Of a stretch of DNA of 64,000 nt, positions 19,157 through 64,000 are shown piece by piece. Position 1 is the stretch's first letter, and each line of letters starts with the position of its first letter. The stretch is taken from assembly GCA_026770705.1 (NCBI GenBank), contig JANJGN010000021.1:98394001-98458000 (forward strand). The letters run 5' to 3'. Source of the stretch: Isurus oxyrinchus (taxonomy: Eukaryota). Under the pieces are notes generated by a model that saw nothing but the letters and a program-made list of their open reading frames with translations, searched no databases and was not told the DNA's origin. The translations under genes and the position numbers were made by a program.

Positions 19157-21990
19157 ATGGGACTATATATACTTTCTCAGATAGAGGCAATTTACTATCC
19201 TATCCTCGCAATTGTTGATATTTTTGGTAAATTATACCAATAATTCTTAGTCTGTCAGGGTATGGCTGCATTACTGCCCTTGCAGCCAGTCCAGCAATGT
19301 CATCTATTCAGGCACTATAGTTCAACTTAATTTCACTTCATAGTTTTCTTCCTTTACTTTGTTGTTACAGTGTCTACAGGTTGCATAACCATTGCGTATT
19401 TCACAAAGGAAAACATTCAATGTTTTTGAAGCATTTATGTTCCCAACACAGAGTTTTAAGTCATTATACAATACACGTCATGTACATCTTCGTGAATCTC
19501 GTTTACAAAGTTGAAACCAGGATGATTTGCAGTTGTCTCACATTTCAGTTAATGTAAATTGTCAATGTGCTATAAATCCCTTGCTTTCAACTTGTATCTA
19601 TGAATGAACTATATCATTCTTTTTTACCCCACACTAATCCCTTCTATTAGGTGCTCAGTTTATCTCCCCATTGAACCGTCTTAAATACCAGTTCTCAGTT
19701 TTTAACAGTCACTCTCTGGCTGCGATGTTTTAGATTGGGTTCTAACTGACATTCAGTCCTGTGTTTGATGTGAGGTGGATTATATCTCTCTTTCGAATTG
19801 TACAGCTCAGGTCAACATTTTCTGTCTCTCTGTTTAGAAATAGCATAATTTTGTGAACAGAATATAAGAGAATTGCAATTCAAATAGTTGACATGCGCTC
19901 ATCTTTAAACTACCAAAATAAGAAGAAATTCTGCAGATATTAGAGTTTCATTTAATTAAACTATTTGAGGAATGTAACAGGAGTGTACATTCAATGAAGG
20001 GATCTCGGCTCATTGCCCTGGTTTGTTGAGATTATTGAGTGTGCATTTCTGAATCTCCCATTCCTTGGTGGAATTCGCTGCTGCAGCATTAGAATTTCCC
20101 CACTGCTGTAATTAGAGGGACCACTCCTGCCACGATTCATTATATGAAAAATCGATTTCCGGCACCTTTCGTAAATGTTAAAAGATATATGAAAATATTT
20201 CATTTCGCAGAAAATTATTCATGCAACGAAGTCGATCATTTACGTTAAGGGAAAATGTGAAACAACGGCAAATCATTCTGTATTCAACATTGTATAAGAA
20301 ATCTCAGAAGATGTACACGATGTGTACTGTTTAATGAATTGAAACTTTTGTGTGGGGAACATAAAACAAGAGCAGGATTTTAAAACTGCGGAGCGTTCAG
20401 TTAGTCGATGCAACACGCAACAATGTATATTCTACCTGCTGTATTAGTGTTTTACAATGTTAGGACACCTGATTAATTGATTGATTCCTTGGCTCGTTGC
20501 TTCTGTGATTCCTATACTGAGTGAATCACTGGGGCAATTTTGACTACTCGCTCTGGTATAAGGAGAGACAAATGATCGACCACCTCTTCTACATTTCTTT
20601 CGATGTTAACTTCCCTTCAGTTCAATAGCAAGCAGAATCGTGGAAGAATGATCATGAACAGCTGATCCCATATCGCCGCTTCTCAACTCTCCCGATTATA
20701 TTTCCACTGAAGTCACTGGGGAGGTAAAATGTGCTGCCTCCTCAATTTTATCCGTTTACACTATTACACAAAGGCAAGATCTACCGCTGATCACCTCAAC
20801 TTACTCCATGTGTGTTCCCAATAATTGTAAGAAAAATTATCTAATTGTATATGCAGGACCGAGTTACCTGGAAATATTCACTTCAAAAAGCATCAAATAT
20901 TTACTTTTTCAGAAACATATTTTTGATATAAAGTGAAGTGGATGGGGTATGAAAGCGGCTGTTGATTCACCAACAGCGGGTTCATGCGAATCCTGAAACT
21001 AAATGAGCCCTATTGCAAGGAGCAAACAGGAACTGGGTTGAGCGACTGCACAAATGATTTCGTGTTAATTTCTATATAACATATTCTCAAACTGAGTTTT
21101 CCAGTGAGACGGGAGTAAGATTTTTTTCACTTATGCCCCTCAGAGGCAATCTATTGGCGATTGCGACTCTCGTGAAAAGTGCGGACTTTCTAAATGTATC
21201 ACTCGTTACATGGTGGCCATGGCAACGACATATCCATTGGTGATAATATTTGATGCATTATTGTATGAGATGAAAGAGATATTCATTTCTCATATACATT
21301 CTTAGATTACACTCCTGTCTGCCGCCTCAATTTAGCGCCGACTTTTGCAGTTATTGGTTGTTCTGTCTGGTTAACGGTCGCTTTCACCATTGATCGATTC
21401 ATCAATATTTGTTGCCAAAAATTGAGAGTCAGATATTGCACTGAAAGAACAGCGGCCATGGTTATAGCCACTGTCTTTGGAGTGAACTTTGTCGAAAACA
21501 TTCCAATTTACATTAAAAGCGAATCCCTGGAAATTATGAACAATACAGCACGGTTCTGCCGTTTAAAATCACGCTCCTCGAATTTACCTATATGGGTAGC
21601 ACGTTTCTTCATTGACATTACCTTAACATCATTGGCAACATTGTTGATGGTTGTCCTGCTCAATGCTCTGATCATCAGTCACATTATACGGGACAGTTGG
21701 GTGAGGAGGGGACTCCAGGGAATCAAAAATCGTGAGACTCCCAATGATCCAGAGATGGAGAACTGAAGAAATTCTATTATATTACTGCTGGCCGTTTCTG
21801 GCTGTTTTATGCTATTCTGGATGGTAACCTTTGTACATTTCATGTGTACACATTTTACACGTATTCCCTCAATGCTGACAGATTACAATGATCCTTTCGT
21901 CATCATGGAGCACGCTGACTATATGTTAGAGTATTTGAGCTCTTGTGCAAACACATTTATCTATACAGTGACTCAGGTTACATTCAGAGT
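19157..21990 (+). pseudogene. GPR139/GPR142-like class A GPCR pseudogene, copy 1 (exon 1 19157-19226, exon 2 from 21146)
   Basis: Exon 1 MGLYILSQIEAIYYPILAIVDIF ends at a phase-1 GTAAAT donor. Exon 2 has KCITRYMVAMA, SVWLTVAFTIDRF, CCQKLRVRYCT and LSSCANTFIY. Disabled by a 2-nt deletion at ~21170, a second frameshift, TGA at 21764-21766 and truncation by a CR1 at ~21990. Confidence 0.9.
19375..20441. mobile_element. Fossil DNA transposon / MITE with ~190-bp terminal inverted repeats in the GPCR intron
   Basis: 19435-19560 (ATGTTCCCAACACAGAG..TGTACATCTTC..GATGATTTGCAGTTGTCTCACATTTC) is the imperfect reverse complement of 20240-20365. Confidence 0.65.
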
Positions 21991-23288
21991 TCCGCAGCGC
22001 CTCAGATGCCAGTCTTTTGCCAGTTCGATTTGCTCGAAGTGATATCAAGAAACAACTGGATACTGCAAATGCTATGGGACCTGACAATATTTTGACAATA
22101 GTTCTGAAGGCTCGAGCTCCAGAACTTGCTGCACCCCTAGCCAAGCTGTTACAGTAATGCTAAAGGCTGGCACCTATCCAGCAAAGTGCAAATTTGCCCA
22201 GGTGTTTCCCGTACATAAATAGCAGGACAAATCCAACCCCGGCAATTACCGCCCCATCAGTCTACACTCGACCATCAGTAAAGTGAGGGAAGGGTCCATC
22301 ATAGGTGCTATCAAGTGGCATTTGCATAGCAATAACCTGCTCACTGACGTTCAGTTTGGGTTCCACCAGGTTTACTCAACCCCTGACGTATTCCAGCCTG
22401 GGTTCAAACATGTACAAAAGAGCTGAACTCCAGAGGTGAGGTGAGAGCGGCTGCCCTTGATATCAAGCTGCTTTTGACAGAGTGTGGCAGCGAAGAGTCC
22501 TAGCAAAAAAGGAGTCAATGGGAATCAGTTGGGGTGAACCTCCCCATTGGTTGGAGTCATGTCTAGCACAAAGGAAGATATTTATGGCTGTTGGAGGTCA
22601 GTCAGCTCAGCCCCAGGGTATCACTGCAAGAGTTCCTGCGGGTAGTGTCCTTGGCCCAACCAACTTCAACAGCTTCATCAATGCCCTTCGCTCCATCAAA
22701 AAGTCAGAAGTGGGGATGTTCGCTGATGATTGTACAATGTTCAGCACCATTCCCAACTCTTCAGATTCTGGAGCAGTCCATGTCCAAATGCAGCAAGACC
22801 TTTGGCTGACAAGTGACAAGTAACATTTGTGCCACACAAGTACCAGGCAATAACCATCTCCAAGAAGAGAGAATCTAACTATTGCTCCTTGATGCTCAAT
22901 GGCATTACCATCGCTGAATCCCCACTATCAACATCCTGGGCGTTACCATTGACCAGAAACTGAACTGGACTAGCCATATAAAAACTCTGGCTGCAAGAAC
23001 AGGTCAGAGGCTCGGAATCGTGCAACAAGTAACTCACCTCCTGACTCTCCAAAGTCTGAACAGCATGTACAAGGCAAAAGTCAAGAGTGTGATGGTATAC
23101 TCCCCACTTGCCTGGATGAGTGCAGCTCCAACAACACTCAAGAACGTCGAAACGATCCAGGACAAAGTAGCCCGCTTGATTTCCACCACATCCACAAACC
23201 GTCAAATCCCGCTCCCTCCACCAGCGTCGCACAGTGGCAGGAGTGTGTACCATCTATAAAATGCATTGCAGCAACTTACCAAGGTTCC
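21990..23288 (+). mobile_element. 5'-truncated CR1 LINE, RT region
   Basis: NYRPISLHS, VPAGSVLGP, MFADD, YKAKVKSVMVYSPLAW motifs, with stops. Confidence 0.9.
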
Positions 23289-23688
23289 TCCTCAATATTA
23301 TCCATTTACCTTATTACACAAGGTCAAGATCTACCCACTGATCACCTCAGCTTACTCAATGCTTGTAAGGAAAGTGAACTAATAGTATATGCAGGGCCGA
23401 GTTACCTGGGAACGTTCACTTCATGCGGCATCAACTATTTACTATTGTGGCACATATTATTGTTGAAAAATGAAGTGAACATGGTATGAAAGAGGCTATT
23501 GACTCACCTTGATCTGATTTTGTGCTACCGCCTGAAACCAGTTTCACCCCATTGCAAGAAGCAAAGGCAAGCTGAGATGAGAGGCTGCACAGATAATTTG
23601 GAGTTCATTTCTATACAGCACATTCTCAAACTGAGTTTTCCAGTGAGATGAATGTGAGAAATATTTTTTTATTTTATTTTCCTCATAG

Positions 23689-24766
23689 GTAACTTGTTAA
23701 CGATTGTGACCCTCTCTCGTGGAAAGTACAGTCTTTCTGAATGCATCACTCGTTACATGGTGGCCATGGCAACGGCAGACCTACTGATGATAATATTTGA
23801 TGTAATATTGTATGAGATTAATGACATTTATTTCTCATATACATTCTTAGATTACACTCTTGTCTGCCGACTCAATTTCACCCTGACTTTCGTAACCATT
23901 TATTATTCTGTCGAGCATATTTCTTACTAGCATACAAATCCTCAAGTCAGATCTCCCTCACTGCTAGTCCAGTTCACAGCTATCAAGCATCACTGTTGCA
24001 TGGTAAATTGTACAGATGTGTGTCTTCAGCCTATGCAGAGTACTGCTTTAAAAGTACTTGACCCCTGGGATACTATATCACAGATTGAGATATGTACAAT
24101 CATAGCTTTCACCTTTGATCGATTCCTTGCTATCTGTTGCTAGAAACTGAGAATCAAGTATTGCACTGAAAGAACAGCGGCCATAGTTATGGCTACTGTC
24201 TTTGGAGTGTTCTTTGTGGAAAACATTCCAAAATACTTTGCAATTGAACCTTTGGAAATTATTAACAATACAGAATGGTTCTGCCGTGTAAAATCAAGCT
24301 CCTCGGGTTTACCTATATGGGTGGCATATACCTTCTTTGACGTTACATTAACACCATTGGCACCTTTTTTGATTATTGTCCTGCTCAATGCTCTGACAAT
24401 TAGTCACATTGTACGGGCTAGCCGAGTGAGGAGGAGGCTCCAGGGAATCAAAAATGTTCAGACTCAAAATGATCGCGAAATGATGAACCGAAGAGAAACC
24501 ATTATATTATTTCTAGCAGTTTTATACTGCTCTGGACAATAACAACGGCGCATTTCATATGCACACACTTTATAGGAATTCCCTTATTGCTGACAGAGTA
24601 CAATGATCCTTTCGCCATCATGGAGCGCACTGGATATATGCTACAGCGTTTAAGCTCATGCACAAACACATTTATCTATGCAGTTGCTCAGGCGAAATTC
24701 AGAGAAGAATTGAAGAATCTCATTAAATATCCCTTGACTCATTGTTCAGTGCGTGATTTCATATAA
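23689..24766 (+). pseudogene. GPR139/GPR142-like GPCR pseudogene, copy 2 (exon 2 only)
   Basis: Acceptor CTCATAG then GNLLTIVTLSRG..YMVAMATADLL, AFTFDRFLAICC, LSSCTNTFIY..AKFREELK. Has a ~190-bp insertion at 23912-24103, TAG at 24141 and a frameshifting deletion near 24515. Confidence 0.9.
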
Positions 24767-27850: not shown

Positions 27851-27859
27851 GTGGGAAGT

Positions 27860-28323
27860 TGTTGCAGTTCACCTCTAAAAACCACCAGGAGACTCAGGTA
27901 CAGGCTACACTCGCTTATTAATTATTCAAGTGTGCGCAGAGAGAGACAGCCTTGGGCAGTCCAAAACTGTAGTCTAAAGTACAAGTGTTCAGGACTTATA
28001 TACACCTTTGATCAAGGACACATGTTCCAATCTGTCAATTTACAATCACATGCTTCTCCGGTTTCAGTTAGCTGTTTCCCTTGTGTACATACAGCAAGCA
28101 ATGTTCTCGTCCATTCAGGACCAACATTCCTTGCTGATTGTTCAGGAGGCTGGGCCTCATTGATTTCAACACCATTCCCTGGTCTTGTACTTTGTTCTAC
28201 TAGCTTATTTGTCTCATTCCTTATCCTGTCTCAAGCAAATCTGCCACTCTCCAGTTCTGCTTTTCTGCTTATACTTTGTTTTTATTAAAAGGTACTTCGA
28301 ACCAAAATCGTTAAACCTTTCTA
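27860..28323 (-). mobile_element. 3' LTR of endogenous retrovirus
   Basis: On the - strand it follows the polypurine tract AAAAAGGGGGG (28335-28325), contains TATATAA (~28002-27996) and ends in GCAACA at 27860; shares CCTGTACCTGAGTCTCCTG with the LTR at 59819-59837. Confidence 0.75.
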
Positions 28324-28440
28324 GCCCCCCTTTTTGGCCCTTGGCCTAACGCAAGGTAGCCAACACAGTGGTATTGCCCCTTTCCTTATGCTCCATTGAT
28401 ACTTATCAGGTATTGAGCTTAGGGTTATAAGGGTTTCGGC

Positions 28441-30000
28441 TTATACCATCTGTACAGGTTGGCCCTGCAATCCGAGCACTTGCCTCTCTCGTTTAGCCCC
28501 CGAATTCATGAAACCCCATTCTCTTTGCCCTCTCTTGTGTGTCCTCCTGGTGTAGTAAACCAAGTATGGTAAATGTAGAACCAATACCAACTGGGCGATC
28601 GCCAAAACATGGGAGTTGATCCTCATCACTGGGTGTACCTGTACATTTGAACCCCAATTCCAAAGGTCTTTCCACCAAGCGGTGGTGTCTATTTGCTGCA
28701 CGTCGTCCGTGTTTAACCCGTTGCTGCAGCGTATAATAGGTTTTTGTACCCGTTAGGCTCATCACGGATATCTGTAAGGTGTTCAGGTAACAGTGGAATT
28801 TCATAGGAAAACTGCTCAAATACTGTGTCAGGTTTTCTTTCATGCCTTCCTCTGCCTGCACGTTAACTTGTCCCTTTTGCAGTTCTACCTTCCCACCCTA
28901 GCAGGCATCTGTATGTATAGACACACCACAGGGCTGGTTATAGAACAAGGTCGATTGTTCCCATATTGGTATTCTGGTTGTGATGTATTAAGGCAATATC
29001 TCCCTGTACCCAGGTGTGCAACGTGAGTTGGTTCCACCGTAGCCCATATAGCTTGCGTTGTACCACTCGCTGTTGCATTAAACCCGCACTTCGCTTCTTC
29101 TGTTTCATATATCCGATGTGGACGCACCACAGAGGAGGCCTCTACTCTCTCTCTCTCTAATGTGGTGCTTACTATACTATTCTCTATTTCTACTGCATAT
29201 GGCGGTATAATATGATACCTCACATAATAATTACCCCTAATTACCCCAATATTCTCTACTCTATATGATGTCTGAGTGGGCGTTGATTCTGGTATAACTG
29301 GAATTGCCAAAACAATGTCGATTAACATATAATTATTCACATAACACTTAGCATCAATTCTATATATATGCGTTAGCCCCCTGAGCCAGCAAACAGTTAA
29401 ATCATGATTCTTACGTTGTGACAGGATAAACAAGTGCACATTCGTTATCCACAGGGGTAGTTGACCGCATCATCTGAGAGGTTTTTTCTTTACATTAAGC
29501 ATGGCTCCCTAGTACATTGGCCAAGCTCTGGGTTATGCGTGTCAGGTCTTGGTCAGTACTGAGTTGCCTGTCCTGGGTCCCTCGTCCATTCTCCAGAATT
29601 TTCTTAATTTGAGAACTTGGGATCCGGACTTTTTGGTCTACTGTTGCTAAATCAATCGAATTTATCACTGAAGTCCCTGCGTTAAATGCTGTGGTGACAT
29701 CATTAACCAGCCTACATTTCAGTCGACATTTTCCCTGAACAGGGGTTGTAGCCATGGGCCGCCCTCCACCGTTAGACGGCCTGTGTTGTCACTTGTTATA
29801 TCAGAGCTGCATGCCGTGCTCCGGTCTGACCCGAGCACTACTCAGGGAAGTCAACATCAGAGACGTTTAAGACGACGAGTAGCAGCTCGTGGTGAACATT
29901 ATCATACCGAGTTTTGTTCGCTTTTATCAGCACTAGCCTATTCTCTGGCCCAGGCCGCAGTGCTGGACAAAGGGAATCAGATAATTGTGGCCGTGGCGTT
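28441..30000 (-). pseudogene. env: Decayed retroviral env, class I fusion protein of F type (lokiretrovirus-like)
   Basis: Segments in order: PGPENRLVL..NVHHELLLVVLN; degenerate basic cleavage site RLKCR followed by LVNDVTTAFNAGTSVINSIDL and a heptad; IPVI..YRVENIG and a Cys-rich region; WWKDLWNWG; hydrophobic TM VLAIAQLVLVLHLPYLVYY; basic tail. Several stops and frameshifts. Confidence 0.75.
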
Positions 30001-30124
30001 TTGCTTCTACTTGTTAAATCAATTATCGCTGTTGTTGCAGCATAATTCCTACCGATTTAACTACAAGACCTCCAGCCCTCACTAGTTGGTCGCGATTAGT
30101 TCCGTAAAATAAGATCAGTTAATA

Positions 30125-30550
30125 CCATGCTTCAATTGCGACCAGTGCTTCCAGGTCCTTCCCTTTCATATCCACACAGGCGCAAGTATCGCTAATCATT
30201 ACCATCTCATTAAGTCCTACCGCCGGGTGCAAAACCTGTTTTTTCTAGCGTTATATTCAGCATTGCCTTAACCCTCACTTCAGGCATGTGCTAAGAGAGC
30301 CGGCCCCCTTACTCCTTTCCTGCTCCGCTATCTCCTGCTGCTGTCTCACCTTGGACCTCAATCAGTTAAGCTGTCTACACAACTCTTCAATGCACCTTCC
30401 TATCCTATCTTTCAATGACTCAGTACCTCACGTCCAGTGATGGTTCTCTCTGGGAGCCCCTTAACTCTGCCTGTCATCATGGTGTTAATCCTGTGGTCTT
30501 ATTTTTTGTAGCTTGCAGGCACATTAATATAATCAGTAATACATCTAATT
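30125..30550 (-). pseudogene. pol: Retroviral integrase C-terminal remnant
   Basis: - strand reads DVLLIILMCLQATKNKTTGLTP / MTGR (30545-30468) and WKHWSQLKH (30154-30128), typical late-core and C-terminal integrase motifs. Confidence 0.7.
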
Positions 30551-31494
30551 AGACATTTTCTAGCTTTCCCTTTTTCCCTGTATCCATCTTATGGTAAATT
30601 GTTGTTAAGTATTATTTTTCCTTACCCTTCAGATGCCTCAACTACAGATTCTTTATGCTTTGATCTTTAAGCTTTTTTGGTACTCCTTCTGACCATTGTT
30701 ATCCTAAGATTCTCTTGAAATCAATTTCTCTATTGCCTTGATCATTTCAAATGTTTCCTTACTTTTTAGGCCATATTAACCATTCCATATCCATGGGAAC
30801 CCTGTCTTCAGATGTTTGCTTATCTCCTCTTTTGTGCCTCCAATGTCTCAGGTGATGGCCAGATTATAAAGTTCAGTTCTCTGAAGAACAGCTTGTATAT
30901 TGTGTCCTCTTTATGTAACACTATCTCCTACCCTTAATCATTCCCCCATACCATTTTACACATGCAATAGCTACTATCTTATCTCATTCTGGTTATTTGG
31001 AGAGATTTTACAATCCAGTGAAGTATTCTCATAATATTTTTAAAACAGAAAGCAAGCATTTCTATTTGATTCCAGGCATTAACATGCTTTACTTCCGTAT
31101 CTTTTTCTCCTCGAACAATATTTTTTTTTCTCAAAAGTAAGCCACAAGATTCTTCATTTTAGAATTATGCCAGATTCATTAACTCTGCCAAAAATTGGAT
31201 TTCTGCCAAACTTTGTCAAGGTCTTGAGCTTAACTTTATATTTTGGGAACAACATACAAAAAGCTTGCAGCATTTGAATTAGTGTCAATTGTTGTCAAAT
31301 AAAAATTCCCTTTTGAGAACATTATCAGGAAACAAATCCCAAATTTTAAACTTTGCAAGAACTGTAATTTACACTCGCAAAATTAAAACTACCTCTTTCT
31401 CATGTATATAAATGTGTATCCAGACTTAAAGTCCCACATGTTTATCAACAGATATTCTTTATCTTCAATAGCATCCTAGTTATTCAAAAGTGTT

Positions 31495-31830
31495 TTTTTA
31501 TTCATTGGAGATAGGCATCGTTTCCTCGGCCAGCATTTATTCCCATTCCTAATTGCCCTTGTTGAGAGAGCATTTAAGAGTCAACCACATTGCTGTATGT
31601 GTGGAGTCACTTGTAGGCAAGGCCAGCAGCTGTTTTTCCCTAAAGCAAACCAGATTGTTTTTTACAACAATGGTCATAATTCAATGAAAACTTTCAACTC
31701 CAAATTTTCAATGAGGACAAATACCACCATTTGCTATGGTGGGGCTCAAACCCAGGCCTGCCAGAACATTACTCTCACTCTCTTGATTCTAGTCCAGCAA
31801 CAATACCATTATACCATCGCCTTGCTTAAT
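31495..31830 (-). mobile_element. SINE (same family as 4582-4920)
   Basis: GGCCAGCATTTATTCCCATTCCTAATTGCCC..TTAAGAGTCAACCACATTGCTGT..CCAGAACATTAC..TACCATTATACCATCGCC. Confidence 0.7.
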
Positions 31831-32759
31831 CCGAGCTACTAAATTATATATCATTTTTCACATCTCAACATAGTCCCAAATTCAAATAGCAGTACTATTG
31901 GGATGCACATTTTGTTTCATATTTAATTCATCCCTTCTTTAAAAAGAAACCCTTTTTTATCAATAGAAACCACCTAGGCCCTGTGTTTATGCCTTCTGGT
32001 TTTCCTAGAATCATTTTGAATTTCAGATTTTGTTTGCCTCAGAATGTTTAGAACACCAACATGCATGAACAAAAATTAACTCCTCAATCCCAATCAGCTT
32101 GGAAACTTGTGGAAAGAGTTACTCCCTGCTAGTCTGCATGGGGTGATGCAAAGGCTGGTTCATCTCAAACAAAGGGGAACACTGCTTTTTCTTTCCAATA
32201 TAGTGGAGCTGCGATTTTTGCCAGAAATCTCAACTCGAATCCTATACTCAGAACATTGGAATGTTTGACTATACTTATCCTTCAATCTACTATGAGGCTT
32301 TTGACTCTTAAGTACTGAACTCCACACACAAATGACAATTTAGGGAAGAAAACATATTAAAGCTTACATACACATTCATCCTTGCACACAAACACACACA
32401 TATATAAAGGTATCTGTGTGTCCATTCTTATATTCGATTTTTCTTAACAACTTAAACATTGTTCTCAGCCAGCGAACTTCTAACTAAAATCGCTTAACCC
32501 TTTCAGAAGTGAAGCAAAGCTGGCTGACCTCAGTTGAAATATAAAACTCCTGTCATATTTTCTGATGACTCCACTGAGAAACAACCTGTAGGTGAGAAAC
32601 AAGAAGGGAACAAGAAGAATTCCTTGGGGCCCCCAGAGGTAATAACATAGGGAAGGGATTAACTAATTGAAGGTGATCCTCTGCCCCTCACTTCGTAAAG
32701 AACAGTTGAACTCGGGGGTGGAAATTTCGCTCAGCTAGGCAAAGGAGGAGAAGTGTTGT

Positions 32760-40743: not shown

Positions 40744-43480
40744 CAAAAACGGAAATACCTGGAAAAACTCAGCAGGTCTGGCAGCATCGGCGGAGAAGAG
40801 CAACGTTGACGTTTTGAGTGCTCATGACGCTTCAACAGAACTAAGCAGAAATAGGAAAGGGGTGAAATATAAGCTGGTTTAACGGGGTGGGGGGAGAAGG
40901 GGATGGAGGGTTGTTTGGACAAACAAACAGTGATAGGAGGAGATAACCAAAGGATGTCACAGATAAAAGAACAAATAGGTATTGAAAGTGGTGATATTAT
41001 CTAAAAGAATGTGCTAATTAAGAATGGAGAGCAGGACAAACAAGGTAGCTCTATTGGGTTGGGGTGAAATAAACGATGTGTGGAAAACATTTAAAAATAA
41101 TGGAAATAGGTGGGAAGAGAAAAATCTATATAAATCATTGGAAAAAAACAAAAGGGGGGGAAGAAACGGAAAGGGGGTGGGGATGGAGGAGGACAGTTCA
41201 AAATCTAAAGTTGTTGAACTCAGTATTCAGTCTGGAAGGCTGTAAAGTGCCCAGTCAGAAGATGAGGTGCTGTTCCTGCAGTTTGCATTGAGCTTCACTG
41301 GAACAATGCAGCAAGCCAAGGACAGACACGTAGGCAAGAGAGCAAGGTGGAGTGTTAAAATGGGAAGCGAAAGGGAGGTCTGGGTAATGCTTGTGGACAG
41401 ACCAATGGTGTTCTGCAAAGCAGTCACCCAGTCTGCGTTTGGTCTCTCCAATGTACAGGAAACCGCATTGGGAGCAACGAATGCAGTAGACTAAGTTGGG
41501 GGAAATTCAAGTGAAATGCTGCTTCACTTGAAAGGAGTGGTTGGGCCCCTTGGACGGTGAGGAGAGAGGATGTGAAAGGGCAGGTGTTGCATATTTTTGC
41601 GTTTGCATAGGGAGGTGCCGTAGGTGGGGGTTGAGGAGTAGGGGGTGATGGAGGAATGGACCAGGGTGTTACAGAGGGAACAATCCCTACAGAATGCCCA
41701 CCCGGGGGGGGGGGGGGGGCGGTGAAGAGAAGATGGGTTTGGTGGTGGCATCATGCTGGAGTTGGCGGAAATGGCGGAGGATGATCCTTTGAATGCGGAG
41801 GCTGGTGGGGTGATAATGAGAGGACAAGGGGGCCCTATCATGTTTCTGGGAGGGAGGAGAATGCGTGAGGGCAGATGCGCGGGAGATGGGCCGGATACAG
41901 TTGAGGGCCCTGTCAATGACCATGAGTGGAAAACCTCAATTAAGGAAGAAGGAGGATATGTTAGAGGAACTGTTTTTGAAGGTAGCATCATCAGAACAGA
42001 TACAATGGAGGCAAAGGAACTGAGAGAATGGGATGGAGTCCTTAAAGGAAACGGGGTGTGAGGAGCTGTAGTTGAGGAATCTGTGGGAGTCGGTAGGTTT
42101 GTAATGGATATTAGTGGACAGTCTATCACCAGAAATTGAGACAGTGAGGTCAAGGAAGGGAAGGGAAGTGTCAGAGATGGACAATGTGAAAATGATGGCG
42201 GGGTGGAGATTGGAAGCAAAATTAATAAATTTTTCCAGGTCCCGATGAGAGCATCAAGCAGCACCAAAGTAATCATCGATGTACCGGAGAAAGAGTTGTG
42301 GAAGGGAGCCAGAGTAGGACTGGAACAAGCAATGTTCCACATACCCCATAAAGAGACAGGCCTAGCTGGGGCCCATGCAGGTACCCATAGCCATATCTTT
42401 TATTTGGAGGAAGTGAGAGGAGTTAAAGGAGAAATTGTTCAGTGCGAGAACAAGTTCAGCCAGGCAGAGGAGAGTAGTGGTGAATGGGGATTGTTCACGC
42501 CTCTGTTCAAGGAAGTAGTTGAGAACCCTCAGACCATCCTGGGGGCGAGGGGGGGGGCGGGGTTTGGTGGTGGGATGGAGGTGTAGAGGGATTGGACATC
42601 CATGGTGAAGAGGAAGCAGTTGAGGCCAGGGAACTGGAAATTGTTGATATGACGTAAGGTGTCAGAGGAATCATGGATGTCGGTGGGAAGGAAATGGACA
42701 AGGGGAGAGAGAAGGGAGTCAAGATAGTGAGAAATGAGTTCCATGGGGCAGGAACAGGCTGACATGATCAGTCTGCCGGGACAGTCCTGTTTGTCGATTT
42801 TGGGTAGAAGGTAGATGTGGGCCATGCGAGGTTGGGCATCTATCAGGTTGGAAGCTGTGGAAGGAAGATCTCCAGAGGAGATGAGGTCAGTGACAGTCCT
42901 GGAAACAATAGCTTGATGTTCAGTGGTGGGGTCATGGTCCAGGGAGAGGTAGGAGGAAGTGTCTGCGAGTTGAAGCTCAGCCTCTGTGAGATAGAGGTCA
43001 GTGCGCCAGACAACAACAGCACCACCCTTGTCAGCGGATTTGATGACAAAGTTAGGGTTGGACCTGCGAGAACAGAGTGCTGTAAGTTCAGAAAGAGACA
43101 GGTTAAAATGGGTGAGAGCAGCAGAGAAATTGAGACACCTAATGTCACGCTGACAGTTCTCAATGAAAAGATCAAAAGAAGGTTAGAATCCAGAGGGAAT
43201 GGTCCAGGTGGAGGGAGAATATTGGATGTGGGTAAAAAGTAGCCATTGAATGGGGAGAGGACTCCTGCCCAAAGAAGTGAGCATGGAGATGAAGGCAGCA
43301 GAAGAAAAGTTCACCATCATGCTGAGCCCAAAATTCATTGAGATGATGGCGTAAGGCTATGAAACTAAGTTCTTTGCTGAGCACTGAATGTTCAGCATCA
43401 GAGAGGGGAAGGTCAGGGGGTATAGTGAGTACACATCCAGGGCTGGGATTGGAAGATGGGGTGGGGATGGAGGGACAGGC
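40744..43480 (-). mobile_element. Penelope-like element (RT + GIY-YIG), left arm
   Basis: YLLPKIDK..PGRLIMSACSCP, FTMDVQSLYTSIP, FLDLTVSISGDRLSTNIHYKPTDSH and IPFSQFLCLHCICS motifs; frameshifted. Confidence 0.88.
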
Positions 43481-43489
43481 AGGAGTGGA

Positions 43490-45221
43490 GGGTCCTCTCA
43501 CTTTCTCCAAATAAAAGGTGTGGTTATGGGTACCCACATGGGCCCAGCTATGCCTGTCTCTTTATTGGGTATGTGGAACATTCCTTGTTCCAGTCCTACT
43601 CGGCCCCCTACAACAACTCTTTCTCTGGTGCATCAATGATTACTTTGATGCTGCTTCATGCTCTCGTCGGGACCTGGAAAAATATATTAATTTTGTTTTC
43701 AATCTCCACCCCTCCATCATTTTCACATGGTCCATCTCTGACACTTCCCTTCTCTTCCTTGACTTCTGGGTCTCAATTTCTGGTGATAGACTGTCCACCA
43801 ATATCCATTACAAGCCTACCGACTCCCACAGCTACCTTGACTACAGCTCTTCAACCCCCGCTTCCTGTAAGGACTCCATCCCATCCTTTTATTTGGAGGA
43901 AGTGAGATAAGTTAAAGGAAAAACTGTTCAGTGAGAGAACAATTTTTTCCCCCACAGTGGTTTACAGGGCCTTCAACAGTGTCCTGACCCATCTCCTGCA
44001 CCTCTACCCTCACCCCTTCCCCTCCCTGCCAGAACCACGATAGGGTCCAACTTGTATTCACTTTTCACCCCACCAGCCTCCACATTCAAAGGATCATCCT
44101 CCCCCATTTCCACCCATTCTAGCATGATGCTACCACCAAACACATCTTTCCCGCAAACCCCTGTCAGCGTTGTGTAGGGACTGTTCCCTCTGTGACACCT
44201 TGGCCCACTCCTCCATCACCCCCAACTCCTCATCCCCCCTCTCATGGCACCTTCCCATGCAAACACAGAAGGATGCAACATCCTGTCCGCCCTTTCACAT
44301 CCTCCCTCCTCACCGTCCTAGGGCCCCAAACAATCCTTTCAGTGAAGCAGCGATTCACTTGCATTCCTCCTCAACTTAGGTCTACTGCATTCATGCTCCG
44401 CAATGCCATTCCTCTATACAGGGAGAGACCTAAACGCAGAGCTGGGTGACGCACTTGCAGAACACCATTGGTCTGTCTCGCACAGCATTACCCTGAGCCT
44501 TCCTTGTCACTTGCCACTTAAACATTCCATCCCTGCTCTCTTGCCTACATGTCCTTCCTTGGGTTGCTGCATTGTCTCCAGTGAAGCCCAACACAAACTG
44601 GAGGAACAGCACCTCATCTTCCAACTAGGCACTTTACAGCCTTCCAGACTGAATATTGAGTTCAACAGCTTTAGATTTTGAACTCCCTCCTCCATCCCCA
44701 CCCCCTTTTTCATTTCTTCACCCCCTTTTGTTTTTTTCCAATGATTATATAGATTTTTCTTTTCCCACCTATTTCCATTATTTTTAAATGTATTCCACCC
44801 ATCGTTTATTTCACCCCACCCTCACTAGAGCTACCTTGCTTGCCCTGCTCTCCATTCTTAATTAGCACATTCTTTTAGATAATATCACCACCTTCAACAC
44901 CTCTTTGTTCTTTTATCTGTGACATATTTTGTTTATCTCCTCCTATCACTGCTTACTTATCCCAACAACACCGCCCCCCCCCCCGCCTCCCCACCCACTT
45001 CTTCCACCCCCACCACCACTCACCCCCCCCCCCCCACCTTAAACCAGCTTATTTTTCACCCCTTTTCCATTTCTGCTTAGTTCTGTTGAAGGGTCATGAG
45101 GACTTGAAACATCAACTTTGTTCTTCTCCACCAATGCTGCCAGACCTGCTGAGTTTTTCCAGGTATTTCTGGGGAGTTTTTTTGGATTTCCAGCATCTGC
45201 ACTTTTTTTGTTTTTATCTCT
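43490..45221 (+). mobile_element. Penelope-like element, right arm (inverted copy)
   Basis: FLQIKGVVMGTHMGP, STNIHYKPTDSHSYLDY, LYTG..LGDALAEH..EEQHLIFQLGTLQPSRLNIEF; 3' UTR is the reverse complement of 40745-41230. Confidence 0.88.
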
Positions 45222-47130: not shown

Positions 47131-49408
47131 GAGAATGTGTAGGTTTATTGTGATAACGTGTAAACAAAGTGCTAATTATGTAAGGATGCTGCAATAAAAT
47201 CTGCGCACTCTGATTTGTGTCTAAAGTTGGCTAAACAACTAAATGGTAGATAAAGTACCTAAACTTCAATTAATTTTATTTGATGAGACTCAGACAATAA
47301 ATGCTGCTCCATGAATTGCTAAATGCTCACGTGTCCTCAGAATTTGCCTATTTGCCTGGACAGAGAGTGAATGAATTGAGTGAAGAAAAAAATCCACCCT
47401 AATTATTGCAGAGTTTATTTTGTGCAAATTATTTTTTAAGCCTGTGTTTCTCATTTCTTTCACTACTCCCTCACTTGCAGCAGCCAATGTGGTGACCATT
47501 GTGATCCTCTCCCGCGGAAACTGTGGCGTCTCCAAATGCATCACTATCTACCTGATGTCCATGGCAGCGGCGCATCTACTGGTCCTGATAGTTGATGTGA
47601 TTCTTTATGAAATGAATGAAATTTATTTCCCAAATTCCTTCCTGGACTACATTCCTGTCTGCAGTCTGAATTTCTTTTTAATTTTTGCTTCAATTGAATG
47701 TTCCGTCTGGTTCACTGTAGCATTCAACATTGATCGATTTGTTGTCATTTGTTGCCAAAAAATACAAACACAATATTGCACTGAAAAAACTGCAGCAGTG
47801 GTTGTAGCGACAATATAGGGACTGGGCATCCTGGAAAACATCCCAATTTACATTTAAACCTCGAATAACAATTGACAACATATCACGGTTCTGCAATGTA
47901 AAATTAAGCCTCTACATTGTACCTAAATGGGTTACATTCTTATGGGTTGACATAGCTTTCATGCTTTTGCCCCCTTTCTCTTGATCCTGACATTGAATGG
48001 CCTGACCATCAGGCACATTTTACTATCAAGCAGGATTAGAAGAGGTCTCCGAAATAGTGGCTGAGACCAAGAAATAGAAAATCGAAGAAAATCTATCGTT
48101 TTACTGCTGGCCATATCTGGGAGCTTAATACTGTTATGGCTGGTAACTTTTGTTCATTATATATGTGTACAGGTTATGGATATTCAATACCTGCACACAG
48201 ATTACAACAATCCTTTCACTATTATGGAACAAACTGGATATATGCTGCAGCATTTGAGTTCCTGCACAAATACCATTATTTTTGCAATATCCCAGAGTAA
48301 ATTCAGAGACGAGTTGAAGAATTTGTTTAAATATCCAATGACTCTAATTACCAAGTTAGTGAAATCATGTAAAGCCCTGAGTGTAATAATGACTGACCAC
48401 AAAACTTGAGACTCCTTTCCATTTTTACTGTGCAAAATAGACAAGACTACACCAGACATGTTACACGCTCCACACAATTCTCTATTCCATGAAGGTCAGG
48501 CGTAATAAGCGGCCGGTCTGCTATCCCTGCTCAGGTGGACCATCCCTCTCTGGAAGAGGCGAAGTCAGTGGACCGTATGTTTGCAGTTATGTCCCACTTC
48601 GATGTTTAACCTGCTCTCGAAAATATTCCCCACATCCATTTGTAGCTTGCAGTTACTTTAACTTTCCACTCGACATTCTGGAGATGTAGTTCACTTGCCG
48701 CTGGTGCCTCAAACACGCTTTGCAGATTAGTCAGAGGTTATGGAAAGCGTCTCATTCTAATTCCCACTGCAGTTAAAGGGTTAACAGCAGAGGGGTTACA
48801 TTGGCGTCGCTCCCCTTCACTTAGGGAGAGAGAGAAGCAGACTCGGGATTGCGGATTCGGCTAGTGAACCGGAGTATGTGAAAAGGATCATGCTCGACTG
48901 GGCGTCCAGTGATTGAATATTTCCGTGTCCACTGCTTCAAAGCACAAGTGGAGACTTTTACCTGAGGCCAATGTTCAAGCTTCTGCTAATTAAGAACGTA
49001 TAGATGTTCACAAAAGATATTTTAATTGCCAGAAATGCATTTATTCCGCACTATCGTTATATATGTAGCGGTAGCTTATAGGTCAGACTTGGCAATGTTA
49101 AGCAAAGGAATAATCGTTTAATAAATTGAAGCAGAAAACATGTGTAAAATATTTATGCAATTACATTAGATTTCGTCGCAGAGCAATTGATTCACAGACT
49201 ACTTTCAGTGTGTTCTTGGTTCCTATTCAAGTCTGGCGTTTGACCCTCGCAGGTACTGGTTAAACAATGTTGTAATCTAGGGAGCGAAAAATAAGTGTTA
49301 GATAATCCAGAGTTGAAGTGCAGAGCAGTGTAGTGAATGAAGTCACTTTGCCTAAATCAGCAGCCCGCCCACCATTCTTAAAAAAAAATAATTAACAGGC
49401 AATTGAGC

Positions 49409-59886: not shown

Positions 59887-60065
59887 ACTCGCCTCAAACT
59901 ATCAGAGCGACGCTGCATAACGGGTGAGTAATGTTTGTTTACAACTTACAGTTAGTGCATTAAGCCAAGCCGAGGACGGTCCAGTCGAGCATCAAAGAAT
60001 CTAAAGAGGAACTCAGTACAAGAAGCACTGAGAGAAGAGAGATTACTAGCGTAGGGGCAAATCAA

Positions 60066-63000
60066 GTGCTAGTGGTATCCACGCAGGGGCCATGGCCGAA
60101 TCTGCTCAGGGGCTGTAGCCAAATCCGTGCTGGTGGTATCCGTGCAGGGGCAATAGCCAAATCCATGCAGAGGCCGTAGCCAAATCCGCGCTGGTGGTAT
60201 TCACGCAGGGACCATAGCCAAATCCATGCAGAGGCCGTAGCCAAATCCGCGCAGGTGGTATCCACGCAGGGGCCATAGACAAATCCCCGCTGGTGGCATC
60301 CACACAGGCTCAAAGACAAATATGTGCTGGTGGTATCCACGCAGGGGCCATAGCTAAATCCGCACAGGGGCCGTAGCTAAATCCATTCTGGTGGTATCCG
60401 CGCAGGGGCTATAGTCAAATCCGCATAGCAGCCGTAGCCAAATCCACACTGGTGGTATCCACGCAGGGGGCATGGCCAAATCCATGCAGGTGGTATCTAC
60501 GCAGGGGCCGTAGCTAAATCTGCACAAGTAGTATCCGCGCAGCAGCCGTAGCCAAATCCACGCTGCTGGTATCCGCGCAGGGGCCATAGCCAAATCTGTG
60601 CTGGTTGTATCTGTGCAGGGGCCATAGCCAAATCTGTGCTGGTGGTATCTGCGCAGGGGCCATAGCCAAATCCGCGCTAGTGGTATCCACACAGGGGCCA
60701 TGGCCAAATCCGCGCTAGTGGTATCCACACAAGGTCCATAGCTAAAATCCGTGCTGGTGGTATCCACACAGGGGCCATAGCCAAATCCAGGCATGGGCCG
60801 TAGCCAAATCCACGCTGGTAGTATCCACACAGGGGCCATAGCCAAATCCATGCATGGGCCGTAGCCAAATCCACGCTGGTGGTATCCACACAGGGGCCAT
60901 AGCCAAATCCGCGCAGGGGCCATAGCCAAATCCGTGCTGGTGGTATCCACGCAGGAGCCATAGTCAAATCCGTGCTGGTGGTATCCGCACAGGGGCCATA
61001 GTCAAATCCACACTGGTGGTACCCACGCAGGGGCCATGACCAAATCCGCACGGGTGGTATCCACACAGGGTCCATAGCTAAATCCATGCTGTGGTATCCA
61101 CACAAGGGCCATAGTCAAATCCATGCTGGTGGTATCCGCGCAGGGGGCATGGCCAAATCCGTGCTGGTGGTATCCACACAGGGGCTGTAGCTAAATCCAT
61201 GCTGGTGGTATCCACACAGGGTCCACAGCCAAATCCACACTGGTGGTATCCGCGCAGGGGGCATGGCCAAATCCACGCTGGTGGTATCCACACAGGGGCC
61301 ATAATCAAATCCGTGTTGGTGGTATCCGCACAGGGTCCATAGCCAAATCCACACTGGTGGTATCCGCGCAGGAGGCATGGCCAAATCCGTGCTGGTGGTA
61401 TTCGCACAGGGTCCATAGCCAAATCCACACTGGTGGTATCCGCGCAGGGGGCATGGCCAAATCCGTGCTGGTGGTATCTGCACAGGGGCTGTAGCTAAAT
61501 CCGCGCCAGTAGTATCCGCGCAGGGGCTATAGCCAAATCCGCGCAGCAGCCATAGCCAAATCCACACTGGTGGTATCCACGCAGGGGGCATAGCCAAATC
61601 CGTGCAGGTGGTATCCACGCAGGGGCCATAGCCAAATCCATGCTGCTGGGATCCGCGCAGGGGCCATAGCCACCACGCAGGGGGCATAGCCAAATCCGTG
61701 CAGGTGGTATCCACGCAGGGGCCATAGCCAAATCCGTGCAGGTGGTATCCACGCAGGGGGCATAGCCAAATCCGTGCAGGTGGTATCCACGCAGGGGCCA
61801 TAGCCAAATCCATGAAGGTGGTATCCACGCAGGGGGCATAGCCAAATCCGCGCTAGTGATATCCACACATGGTCTGTAGCTAAAATCTGTGCTGGTGGTA
61901 TTCACGCAGGGGCCATAGCCAAATCTGCACTGGTGGTATCCACGCAGGGGCCGTAGCTAAATCCATGCTGGTGGTATCCGCACAGAAGCCATAGTTAAAT
62001 CCGTGCTGGTGGTATTCACGCAGGGGCCATAGCCAAATCTGCACTGGTGGTATCCACGCAGGGGCCGTAGCTAAATCCACGCTGGTGGTATCCACACAGG
62101 GGCCATAGCTAAATCCGTGCTGGTGGTAACCGCACAGGGGCCGTAGCTAAATTTACGCTGGTGGTATCCACACAGGGGCCATAGCCAAATCTGTGCCGGT
62201 GCTATCTGCACAGGAGCCATAGCCAAATCCTCACGGGTGGTATCTGCGCAGGGGCCATAGCCAAATCCGCGAAGGTGGTATCCACGCAGGGGCCATAGCC
62301 AAATCCACGCTGGTGGTATCCACGCAGGAGCCATAGCCAAATCCGCACGGGTGGTATCTGCGCAGGGGCCATAGCCAAATCCACGAGGGTGGTATCCACG
62401 CAGGGGCCATAGCCAAATCCGCAAGTGTGGTATCTGCGCAGAGGCCATAGCCAAATCTGTGCGGGTGGTATCCACACAGGGACCATGGCCAAATCCGTGC
62501 TGGTGGTATCCACACAGAGGCCATAGACAAATCCGTGCGGGTGGTATCTGCGCAGGGGCCATAGCCAAATCCACGCTGGTGGTATTCACACAGGGTCCAT
62601 AGCTAAATCCATGCTGTGGTATCCACACAAGGGCCATAGTCAAATCCATGCTGGTGGTATCCGCGCAGGGGGCATGGCCAAATCCGTGCTGGTGGTATCC
62701 ACACAGGGGCTGTAGCTAAATCCATGCTGGTGGTATCCACACAGGGGACATAGCCAAATCCGCGCAGGGGCCATAGCCAAATCCGTGCTGGTGGTATCCA
62801 CGCAGGAGCCATAGTCAAATCCGTGCTGGTGGTATCCGCACAGGGGCCATAGTCAAATCCACACTGGTGGTACCCACGCAGGGGCCATGACCAAATCCGC
62901 ACGGGTGGTATCCACACAGGGTCCATAGCTAAATCCATGCTGTGGTATCCACACAAGGGCCATAGTCAAATCCATGCTGGTGGTATCCGCGCAGGGGGCA

Positions 63001-64000
63001 TGGCCAAATCCGTGCTGGTGGTATCCACACAGGGGCTGTAGCTAAATCCATGCTGGTGGTATCCACACAGGGTCCACAGCCAAATCCACACTGGTGGTAT
63101 CCGCGCAGGGGGCATGGCCAAATCCACGCTGGTGGTATCCACACAGGGGCCATAATCAAATCCGTGTTGGTGGTATCCGCACAGGGTCCATAGCCAAATC
63201 CACACTGGTGGTATCCGCGCAGGAGGCATGGCCAAATCCGTGCTGGTGGTATTCGCACAGGGTCCATAGCCAAATCCACACTGGTGGTATCCGCGCAGGG
63301 GGCATGGCCAAATCCGTGCTGGTGGTATCTGCACAGGGGCTGTAGCTAAATCCGCGCCAGTAGTATCCGCGCAGGGGCTATAGCCAAATCCGCGCAGCAG
63401 CCATAGCCAAATCCACACTGGTGGTATCCACGCAGGGGGCATAGCCAAATCCGTGCAGGTGGTATCCACGCAGGGGCCATAGCCAAATCCATGCTGCTGG
63501 GATCCGCGCAGGGGCCATAGCCACCACGCAGGGGGCATAGCCAAATCCGTGCAGGTGGTATCCACGCAGGGGCCATAGCCAAATCCGTGCAGGTGGTATC
63601 CACGCAGGGGGCATAGCCAAATCCGTGCAGGTGGTATCCACGCAGGGGCCATAGCCAAATCCATGAAGGTGGTATCCACGCAGGGGGCATAGCCAAATCC
63701 GCGCTAGTGATATCCACACATGGTCTGTAGCTAAAATCTGTGCTGGTGGTATTCACGCAGGGGCCATAGCCAAATCTGCACTGGTGGTATCCACGCAGGG
63801 GCCGTAGCTAAATCCATGCTGGTGGTATCCGCACAGAAGCCATAGTTAAATCCGTGCTGGTGGTATTCACGCAGGGGCCATAGCCAAATCTGCACTGGTG
63901 GTATCCACGCAGGGGCCGTAGCTAAATCCACGCTGGTGGTATCCACACAGGGGCCATAGCTAAATCCGTGCTGGTGGTAACCGCACAGGGGCCGTAGCTA
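60066..64000. repeat. 38-bp minisatellite with 1851-bp higher-order duplication (runs off window end)
   Basis: Consensus GGGGCCATAGCCAAATCCGTGCTGGTGGTATCCACGCA; ~60900-62149 recurs at ~62751-64000 (identical ORF translations offset by 1851). Confidence 0.97.

Follow-up and report, generated by a model that had tools for sequence, protein, structure and literature searches.

A gag- and reverse-transcriptase-less endogenous retrovirus of Isurus oxyrinchus with a decayed, predicted F-type envelope and relatives of canonical polymerase type

Lokiretroviruses are defined in the passages of PMC7947760 (Wang and Han) by the position of their reverse transcriptase (RT) as the sister group of the canonical retroviruses, and none of the three chondrichthyan genomes covered in those passages was found to carry them. 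An envelope protein (Env) resembling the fusion (F) proteins of pneumoviruses and paramyxoviruses is described for foamy viruses in passages of PMC11468914, and passages of PMC12583693 expect further cases of F-like Env within the Retroviridae. From the elephant shark, an endogenous retrovirus (ERV) lineage clustering with snakehead retrovirus (SnRV) is reported in passages of PMC4422223 (CmiERV lineage I), and the passages of PMC4422223, PMC4977317 and PMC12193657 contain no description of the Env fold of SnRV or CmiERV. The present work concerns a stretch of 64,000 nucleotides from Isurus oxyrinchus (GenBank assembly GCA_026770705.1, contig JANJGN010000021.1, positions 98,394,001 to 98,458,000; hereafter the window), whose minus strand carries an ERV that was described in an initial annotation as lokiretrovirus-like. 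We consider it very likely that this element is a dead copy of an old ERV subfamily lacking gag and RT, probably spread with the help of a deep canonical lineage that is loosely related to SnRV, and not to lokiretroviruses, and that has a predicted F-type Env.

The element extends on the minus strand from 32505 down to 27860 and it is flanked by 5-bp target-site duplications (TSDs). Of the extent proposed initially (27860..30900), the lower limit has stood, as the 3' long terminal repeat (LTR) reaches 27860, whereas the 5' end of the element lies at 32505, with ACTTC present at both ends. The minus-strand integrase remnant, env, polypurine tract (PPT) and LTR named in the initial annotation were all found, by translation and by tblastn with the natural open reading frames (ORFs) of relatives, and the LTR, TSD and PPT anatomy is that of an endogenous retrovirus, as had been proposed. 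The Trp-rich motif and the transmembrane segment (TM) are likewise present. The features in the window, in the 5' to 3' direction of the element, are as follows.

32506..32510, minus strand: 5' target-site duplication ACTTC, identical to 27855-27859
32456..32505, minus strand: 5' LTR stub; 32506-32476 corresponds to the LTR start of sister copies L012 and L015 (93.5% over 31 nt)
30546..32455, minus strand: AT-rich internal segment (64% A+T) in the place of gag-pol
30328..32165 (also L019:4445-5905 and L022:4229-5645): AT-rich non-coding segment shared by two defective families with different LTRs and primer-binding site (PBS) types
31492..31835, strand unassigned: later insertion of about 345 nt, breakpoints 31836/31491, missing from all five sister copies
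30085..30545, minus strand: frameshifted C-terminal remnant of integrase, tblastn E 1e-13 against the integrase tail of L026, a full-length relative
28531..30002, minus strand: broken F-type env (stalk, F2, F1, TM), 51-54% identical in its three main high-scoring segment pairs (HSPs) to residues 195-721 of a relative's Env
29711..29725, minus strand: decayed furin-type cleavage site, the equivalent of RDKR (residue 281) in the natural relative
29498..29710, minus strand: fusion-peptide region (29710-29648), then the first heptad helix; the relative's model has helices at 281-327 and 337-398
28654..28677, minus strand: Trp-rich membrane-proximal motif, from minus-strand translation
28552..28608, minus strand: transmembrane segment, from translation and the relative's model
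28325..28335, minus strand: polypurine tract; the region is 78-88% identical in full-length relatives
27860..28323, minus strand: 3' LTR of about 460 nt, present in many copies, the others being 77-81% identical
27855..27859, minus strand: 3' target-site duplication ACTTC, identical to 32506-32510

After the 5' LTR stub, about 1.1 kb is missing from this copy, namely the remaining LTR together with PBS, leader and gag stub, and 32456 is the point where the alignment picks up again at position 1700 of sister copy L013. No protein homology was found within the internal segment 30546..32455, and no homology to gag-capsid, protease, RT or RNase H was found by tblastn with the relatives' ORFs in the window or in any of the five sister copies. 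Part of the insertion at 31492..31835, which we take to be SINE-like, recurs elsewhere in the window. The env is spread over several frames by multiple stops and frameshifts, with a gap of about 100 nt near 29497/29457, and it lacks the signal peptide and the N-terminal head; a hydrophobic stretch near 30530 was considered as a signal peptide and ruled out, as it belongs to the integrase. Pfam searches with four window fragments gave no significant match.

Searches of the genome (4.98 Gb) with the LTR, with the env DNA and with the internal segment found numerous related loci in every case, at identities of about 69-86%; as 40 candidates were scored in each of these searches, the counts are minimum values. 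Five sister copies with two LTRs (L011-L015) show Kimura two-parameter (K2P) distances of 0.137-0.178 between their LTR pairs, from which an age of about 30-40 million years would follow at 2.2e-9 per site per year (the rate used in PMC7947760), or ten times this if one applies the shark rate of passages of PMC4422223, which is taken there to be tenfold lower. A short N-terminal stub of gag is retained in two of the five sisters, and their PBS pairs with the 3' ends of tRNA-Ser genes (4 of the 5 pattern loci scanned were called tRNA-Ser). Because one architecture without RT recurs at many loci, the subfamily appears to have spread in trans: its RNA would have kept the signals required in cis, viz. 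LTR, PBS, leader and PPT, while packaging, reverse transcription and integration would have been provided by helper proviruses, and the headless env without a clear signal peptide was probably carried as a passenger.

Between the integrase end and the F2 start lie 209-245 nt in 16 of the 17 measurable copies (26 examined), the sole exception being L014, which carries a local duplication, and 668-771 nt in all four measurable full-length relatives. A clear signal peptide was seen at the env junction in none of five copies, where the best 11-residue hydropathy is 1.2-1.9 versus 2.0-3.3 in four full-length relatives. Due to this short distance and the lack of a clear signal peptide, the N-terminal position of the cleavage site in the subfamily most likely represents a derived loss of the signal peptide and head domain; global DNA alignment did not fix the position of the deletion junction. 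The reported placement of the cleavage site, fusion peptide and heptad near the Env N-terminus thus holds for the window copy, but it is a trait of the subfamily, as the cleavage site is at residue 281 in a full-length relative. A +1 shift at codons 205-225 is common to 10 of 22 copies. Differences among copies at the three codon positions are 0.169/0.149/0.224 in the integrase tail and 0.185/0.166/0.215 in env, and since the two share the same pattern, no selection specific to env is apparent within the subfamily.

The interior of a younger defective family (L019, L022) matches the AT-rich filler at 74-78% identity, whereas the env is only 61-67% identical to the same loci; the LTRs of this family differ from those of the window element and form pairs of 95-97% identity. 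As the filler identity exceeds that of env, this comparison suggests that defective lineages have recombined with one another, and the AT-rich segment is possibly a swapped cis element. Another headless derivative is a 3.4-kb two-LTR element (L018:1103-4529), in which a gag stub leads almost straight into the env F2.

A protein search with the longest ORF of the window gave at least 150 matching loci, as 150 of the 150 scored candidates matched. Several env loci also hold an RT at the expected distance, and L016, L024-L026, L028 and L030 show the order gag, protease, RT, tether, RNase H, integrase and env. The Pfam domains in relatives are zf-CCHC (two), protease, RVT_1, RT_RNaseH_2, RNase_H and rve, and the two zinc knuckles were seen in the Gag of L025. 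The dual RNase H (tether plus RNase H) is common to all retroviruses and hence not discriminating. The natural env ORF of L016 encodes 724 aa, which begin with a signal peptide and a head of about 170 residues; a Pro/Thr stalk and F2 lead to RDKR at 281, after which come the fusion peptide, the heptads, a Cys-rich beta region, the Trp-rich motif, a TM and a tail of about 13 residues. A HMMER scan gave 42 Env relatives, among which no lokiretroviral Env was recognised; word-index protein searches with a window fragment and with alignment A1 gave no matches, but these are insensitive, as the HMMER result indicates. The named nearest relatives of both Env and Pol are from sharks, a skate and frogs, and no viral contigs with RT were found. 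One cluster of relatives in the frog Mantella aurantiaca (P0039) has 16 members, most of them Env homologues with the full length of 677 aa, and their presence at many loci suggests recent activity.

The Env of L016 was modelled from an alignment of 34 sequences, giving a mean predicted local distance difference test (pLDDT) score of 61.6, with residues 10-196 below 50. Its best Foldseek matches in the PDB are the post-fusion F of respiratory syncytial virus (RSV; E 3.4e-11) and the F of human parainfluenza virus 3 (hPIV3; E 2.2e-10), and pneumovirus or paramyxovirus F proteins account for all 40 matches listed. With VIA-align, the best 12 rows are F proteins or foamy Env (Z 7.9-11.5), including Newcastle disease virus (NDV) F (Z 11.5, rmsd 16.4, 372 aligned) and foamy Env 8rm0 (Z 8.4, rmsd 6.0, 269 aligned), and the top Atlas match carries Fusion_gly on 21% of its members. 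Based on these matches, the relative's Env is predicted to fold like the F proteins, in agreement with the F2-F1 layout noted initially, with RSV, hPIV3 and NDV F all matched by the model; F proteins are thus the best PDB matches in the structural comparison that the initial annotation had recommended. The likeness covers relative Env residues 210-670 at 8-14% sequence identity, and the relative's Env differs from these F proteins in being encoded by a retrovirus and in its extra N-terminal head. Neither CX6CC nor LQNR of gamma-type Env is present in the natural 724-aa relative, and the absence of CX6CC and an immunosuppressive domain that was noted initially is borne out by this ORF. A GP41 match was seen in just one of the 34 aligned members (E 0.041), and at the sequence level neither the Env nor its profile had a match below E 0.2 in the PDB. 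The head modelled alone reached a pLDDT of 32.6 and gave no usable Atlas match; the label Ig-like is unconfirmed for it, the sole hints being a V-set match (E 0.045) in P0029 and a UniRef name for P0006. In the parent virus, furin cleavage at RxKR would have separated the Env into F2 and F1, with the fusion peptide then inserting into the target membrane and the heptads refolding into a helical bundle as in RSV F, following established F-protein biology; the head of about 170 residues is a probable, putative receptor binder.

The Env motifs, viz. a PGP segment before F2, the cleavage site, the helix end and a cysteine series, are colinear with those of the lokiretroviral Env rows seen in the supplement of PMC7947760, a comparison of motif order made by eye and not a computed alignment. 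However, it will be incorrect to interpret the F fold as diagnostic of lokiretroviruses, as the foamy Env has an F fold (passages of PMC11468914) and the models of walleye epsilonretrovirus Env also match: in BFVD, the Env of walleye epidermal hyperplasia virus 1 (WEHV1) at E 1.6e-9, that of walleye dermal sarcoma virus (WDSV) at 2.9e-8 and feline foamy Env at 5.3e-6.

The env-linked RT, in contrast, is of the canonical-retrovirus type and not lokiretroviral. Its motif is LPQG, versus CPFG/TPFG in the lokiretrovirus rows seen in the supplement of PMC7947760. An RT tree of 31 rows was rooted on three Gypsy RTs from the same genome and included one loki-type row, P0056, identified by motif likeness to rows of that supplement. 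L016 and L026 (short or frameshifted HSPs) and the Gypsy loci L084 and L085 (frameshifted) were left out, 15 of 20 Gypsy loci were excluded for a short or no HSP, and a second tree omitted 10 near-duplicate rows. P0056 is sister to the other 27 rows (support 99/97). The env-linked RTs group together (98/94) within these 27 canonical rows, beside a horn-shark protein and not joined to the rows with class-I motifs, in a tree without a named WDSV or WEHV row. Forcing the env-linked or wider shark group together with P0056 costs 16.6 log-likelihood units (approximately unbiased (AU) test, p-AU 0.011). Further traits of lokiretroviruses are an RNase H of the loki/foamy group, an integrase close to CGIN1 and, optionally, an smc gene. 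In RNase H comparisons, which are BLAST scores and not a tree, the loki-motif proteins are among the worst matches of 13 proteins tested (27-31 bits versus 45-88 for the five best rows), and the loki-motif Pol P0056 gave 44 matches in the genome, every one just 28-36% identical (stricter first look). The claim of lokiretrovirus-like membership has therefore not survived: the full-length relatives that were to be looked for do exist, but their RT is of LPQG type, nested in the canonical retroviruses and away from the loki-motif row, and their RNase H is poorly matched by loki-motif proteins. A grouping of the RT with Gypsy clades, which had been envisaged as another outcome, is not seen in the RT tree, the Pfam domains or the PDB RT matches (foamy 137 bits, murine leukemia virus 115, human immunodeficiency virus 2 79, Ty3 76), and the dual RNase H of the relatives differs from the single RNase H of Gypsy (Metaviridae). 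More LPQG-type ERV lineages are present in this genome (L031-L040, L046-L051), in at least two distinct RT-tree clades.

Less firm than the canonical placement is the relation to SnRV, a loose label which is only moderately favoured. A hand count over 131 RT columns against the supplement rows gave 62 for SnRV, versus about 54 (Loki-Bsp) and about 52 (WDSV). Further likenesses to SnRV and SnRV-like ERVs are the RNase H motifs, compared by eye, a zinc-knuckle Gag and the precedent of a cartilaginous-fish host. In passages of PMC12193657 and PMC4977317, SnRV differs in its long Env tail, its accessory ORFs and its single zinc finger, whereas the relatives have a short tail and two zinc fingers. 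No published description of the combination of Env and Pol found here emerged from a search that covered literature outside subscription journals, and this combination is undescribed in the passages of PMC4977317, PMC11521997, PMC13709493, PMC2717909, PMC12193657 and bioRxiv 10.1101/2023.10.26.564294.

A number of observations weigh against the interpretation of the window element as a helper-spread derivative of a canonical lineage with F-type Env. The element itself has no RT, so its placement depends on relatives with env DNA 63-68% identical, and as the family recombines, the direct parent of the window copy is unsampled. The RT tree contains a single loki-type row and lacks named rows for SnRV, foamy virus and WDSV, it does not resolve the base of the canonical clade, and the group subjected to the AU test was picked once the trees had been seen. 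Among integrase scores, which are BLAST scores and poorly discriminating (P0050 219 bits, loki-motif P0081 165, NYNRIN-like P0053 163), P0081 exceeds the class-I-type P0060 and P0061 (106-112). The SnRV margin in the hand count is small, the RTs of P0053 and P0063 look at least as SnRV-like by eye, and the relative's Env tail of about 13 residues is short versus the long tail of SnRV (passages of PMC12193657). The Env model has a pLDDT of 61.6 and TM-scores of about 0.3 of the query. Lastly, the most widely shared env stop is found in 10 of 26 copies, i.e. none is common to most, and frame 0 is the commonest in all 18 env intervals across copies, due to which the short env frame is judged to have been open in the progenitor.

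This open frame from F2 to TM is among the points favouring an explanation in which an undiscovered autonomous parent used the short headless Env as a working fusogen of the loki-like 'F-only' kind, and the subfamily arose from that parent by deletion. The short form in 16 of the 17 measurable copies also agrees with it, as does the published lokiretroviral Env, in which F2 follows the signal peptide directly (passages of PMC7947760). However, the junction shows no clear signal peptide in 5 of 5 copies, selection on env is no greater than on the dead integrase tail, the +1 shift at codons 205-225 is present in 10 of 22 copies, and no autonomous short-env element is found among the loci retrieved; this explanation is unlikely. 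Slightly less likely again is a parent that was an epsilon-like (class I) or foamy-like virus with an F-like Env, for which the BFVD matches, foamy as the best PDB RT match and good RNase H scores with class-I-type rows can be cited. Against it, the env-linked RT clade is apart from the class-I rows, and the TSD is 5 bp here, that of class I being 4 bp. Further, the relatives' Gag has two zinc knuckles, whereas spumaviruses have none (passages of PMC2717909), and although the foamy Env shares the F-like core, it has two membrane-spanning segments, while the relatives have a shorter Env with a single C-terminal TM and a short signal peptide. That the lineage belongs to the true lokiretroviruses, as their first representative from cartilaginous fish, is highly improbable: it can draw on the F fold, the Env motif order by eye, the dual RNase H, the integrase similarity to a loki-motif protein and the shared signal peptide, RXKR, fusion peptide, coiled coil and TM (present in the natural relative, the window copy having no signal peptide), but it is largely refuted by the RT tree and AU test, and the LPQG motif, the canonical-type RNase H with its low scores against loki-motif proteins, the distant genome matches of P0056, the extra head of about 170 residues in the relatives' full-length Env and the three chondrichthyan genomes without lokiretroviruses (passages of PMC7947760) also speak against it. 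The reading of a helper-spread derivative of a canonical lineage is thus preferred.

Besides this element, the window contains three related copies of a membrane-protein-like ORF remnant (21167-24766 and 47509-48308), presumably resembling a G-protein-coupled receptor, a long inverted repeat at 40744-45169 with arms 84-90% complementary and about 1.2 kb between them at the centre, and a GC-rich tandem array with periods of 38 and 61 nt (60005-64000).

Outside the window, the unbroken 724-aa F-type env of L016 (L016:1752-3923, minus strand; G000:C40) lies in a decayed provirus, whose LTRs differ by a K2P distance of 0.167 and whose pol carries many frame changes, with env still open. When decay by substitutions only was simulated, the frame of this env survived in 1 of 1000 runs at 0.083 per site and in 25 of 1000 at 0.04. 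Contigs presumed to be of RNA origin yielded no more than short pieces of this env. By crude three-taxon arithmetic (L016, L024, L030), the L016 branch has a dN of about 0.016 and a dS of about 0.19, versus 0.076 and 0.10 for the L030 branch. What seems to be the same locus, together with its flank, is present in a second organism, where env shows 6 differences from that of L016 in 656 nt (run X7) and 10 in 756 nt (X9), figures biased low because the pieces are the longest shown, passed a 96% filter and cover about one-third of the gene; the adjacent integrase differs at 14 of 388 positions, pol by 3.7-4.8% and the flank by 2.8%. No indel is present among the listed env pieces, and 6 of the 9 differences at single-copy depth are synonymous. 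As judged from these sequences, the L016 env is apparently under purifying selection and it is a candidate for a gene that may have been co-opted by the host.

Separate origins of the lokiretroviral and canonical retroviral Env, with no similarity seen between them, are preferred in passages of PMC9040795 (Wang and Han). The loki-like motifs and F fold found here on a canonical Pol, together with the foamy and epsilonretroviral Env, point to a shared F-type ancestor or to exchange of env. It is a tentative proposal, which we consider possible though not probable, that the canonical lineage of sharks, skates and frogs has an Env truly homologous to that of lokiretroviruses and that sharks have domesticated one env copy as a conserved host gene. 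If this is true, then the F-type Env would be ancestral to all retroviruses, or it would have been swapped across the divide between lokiretroviruses and canonical retroviruses, and the domesticated copy would be the F-type counterpart of the syncytin-like or antiviral env genes. A single alignment with its tree could now test the question of Env origin. The copy in the window is no more than a fossil, and the env of L016, if confirmed, would represent the co-option of an F-type env by a cartilaginous fish.

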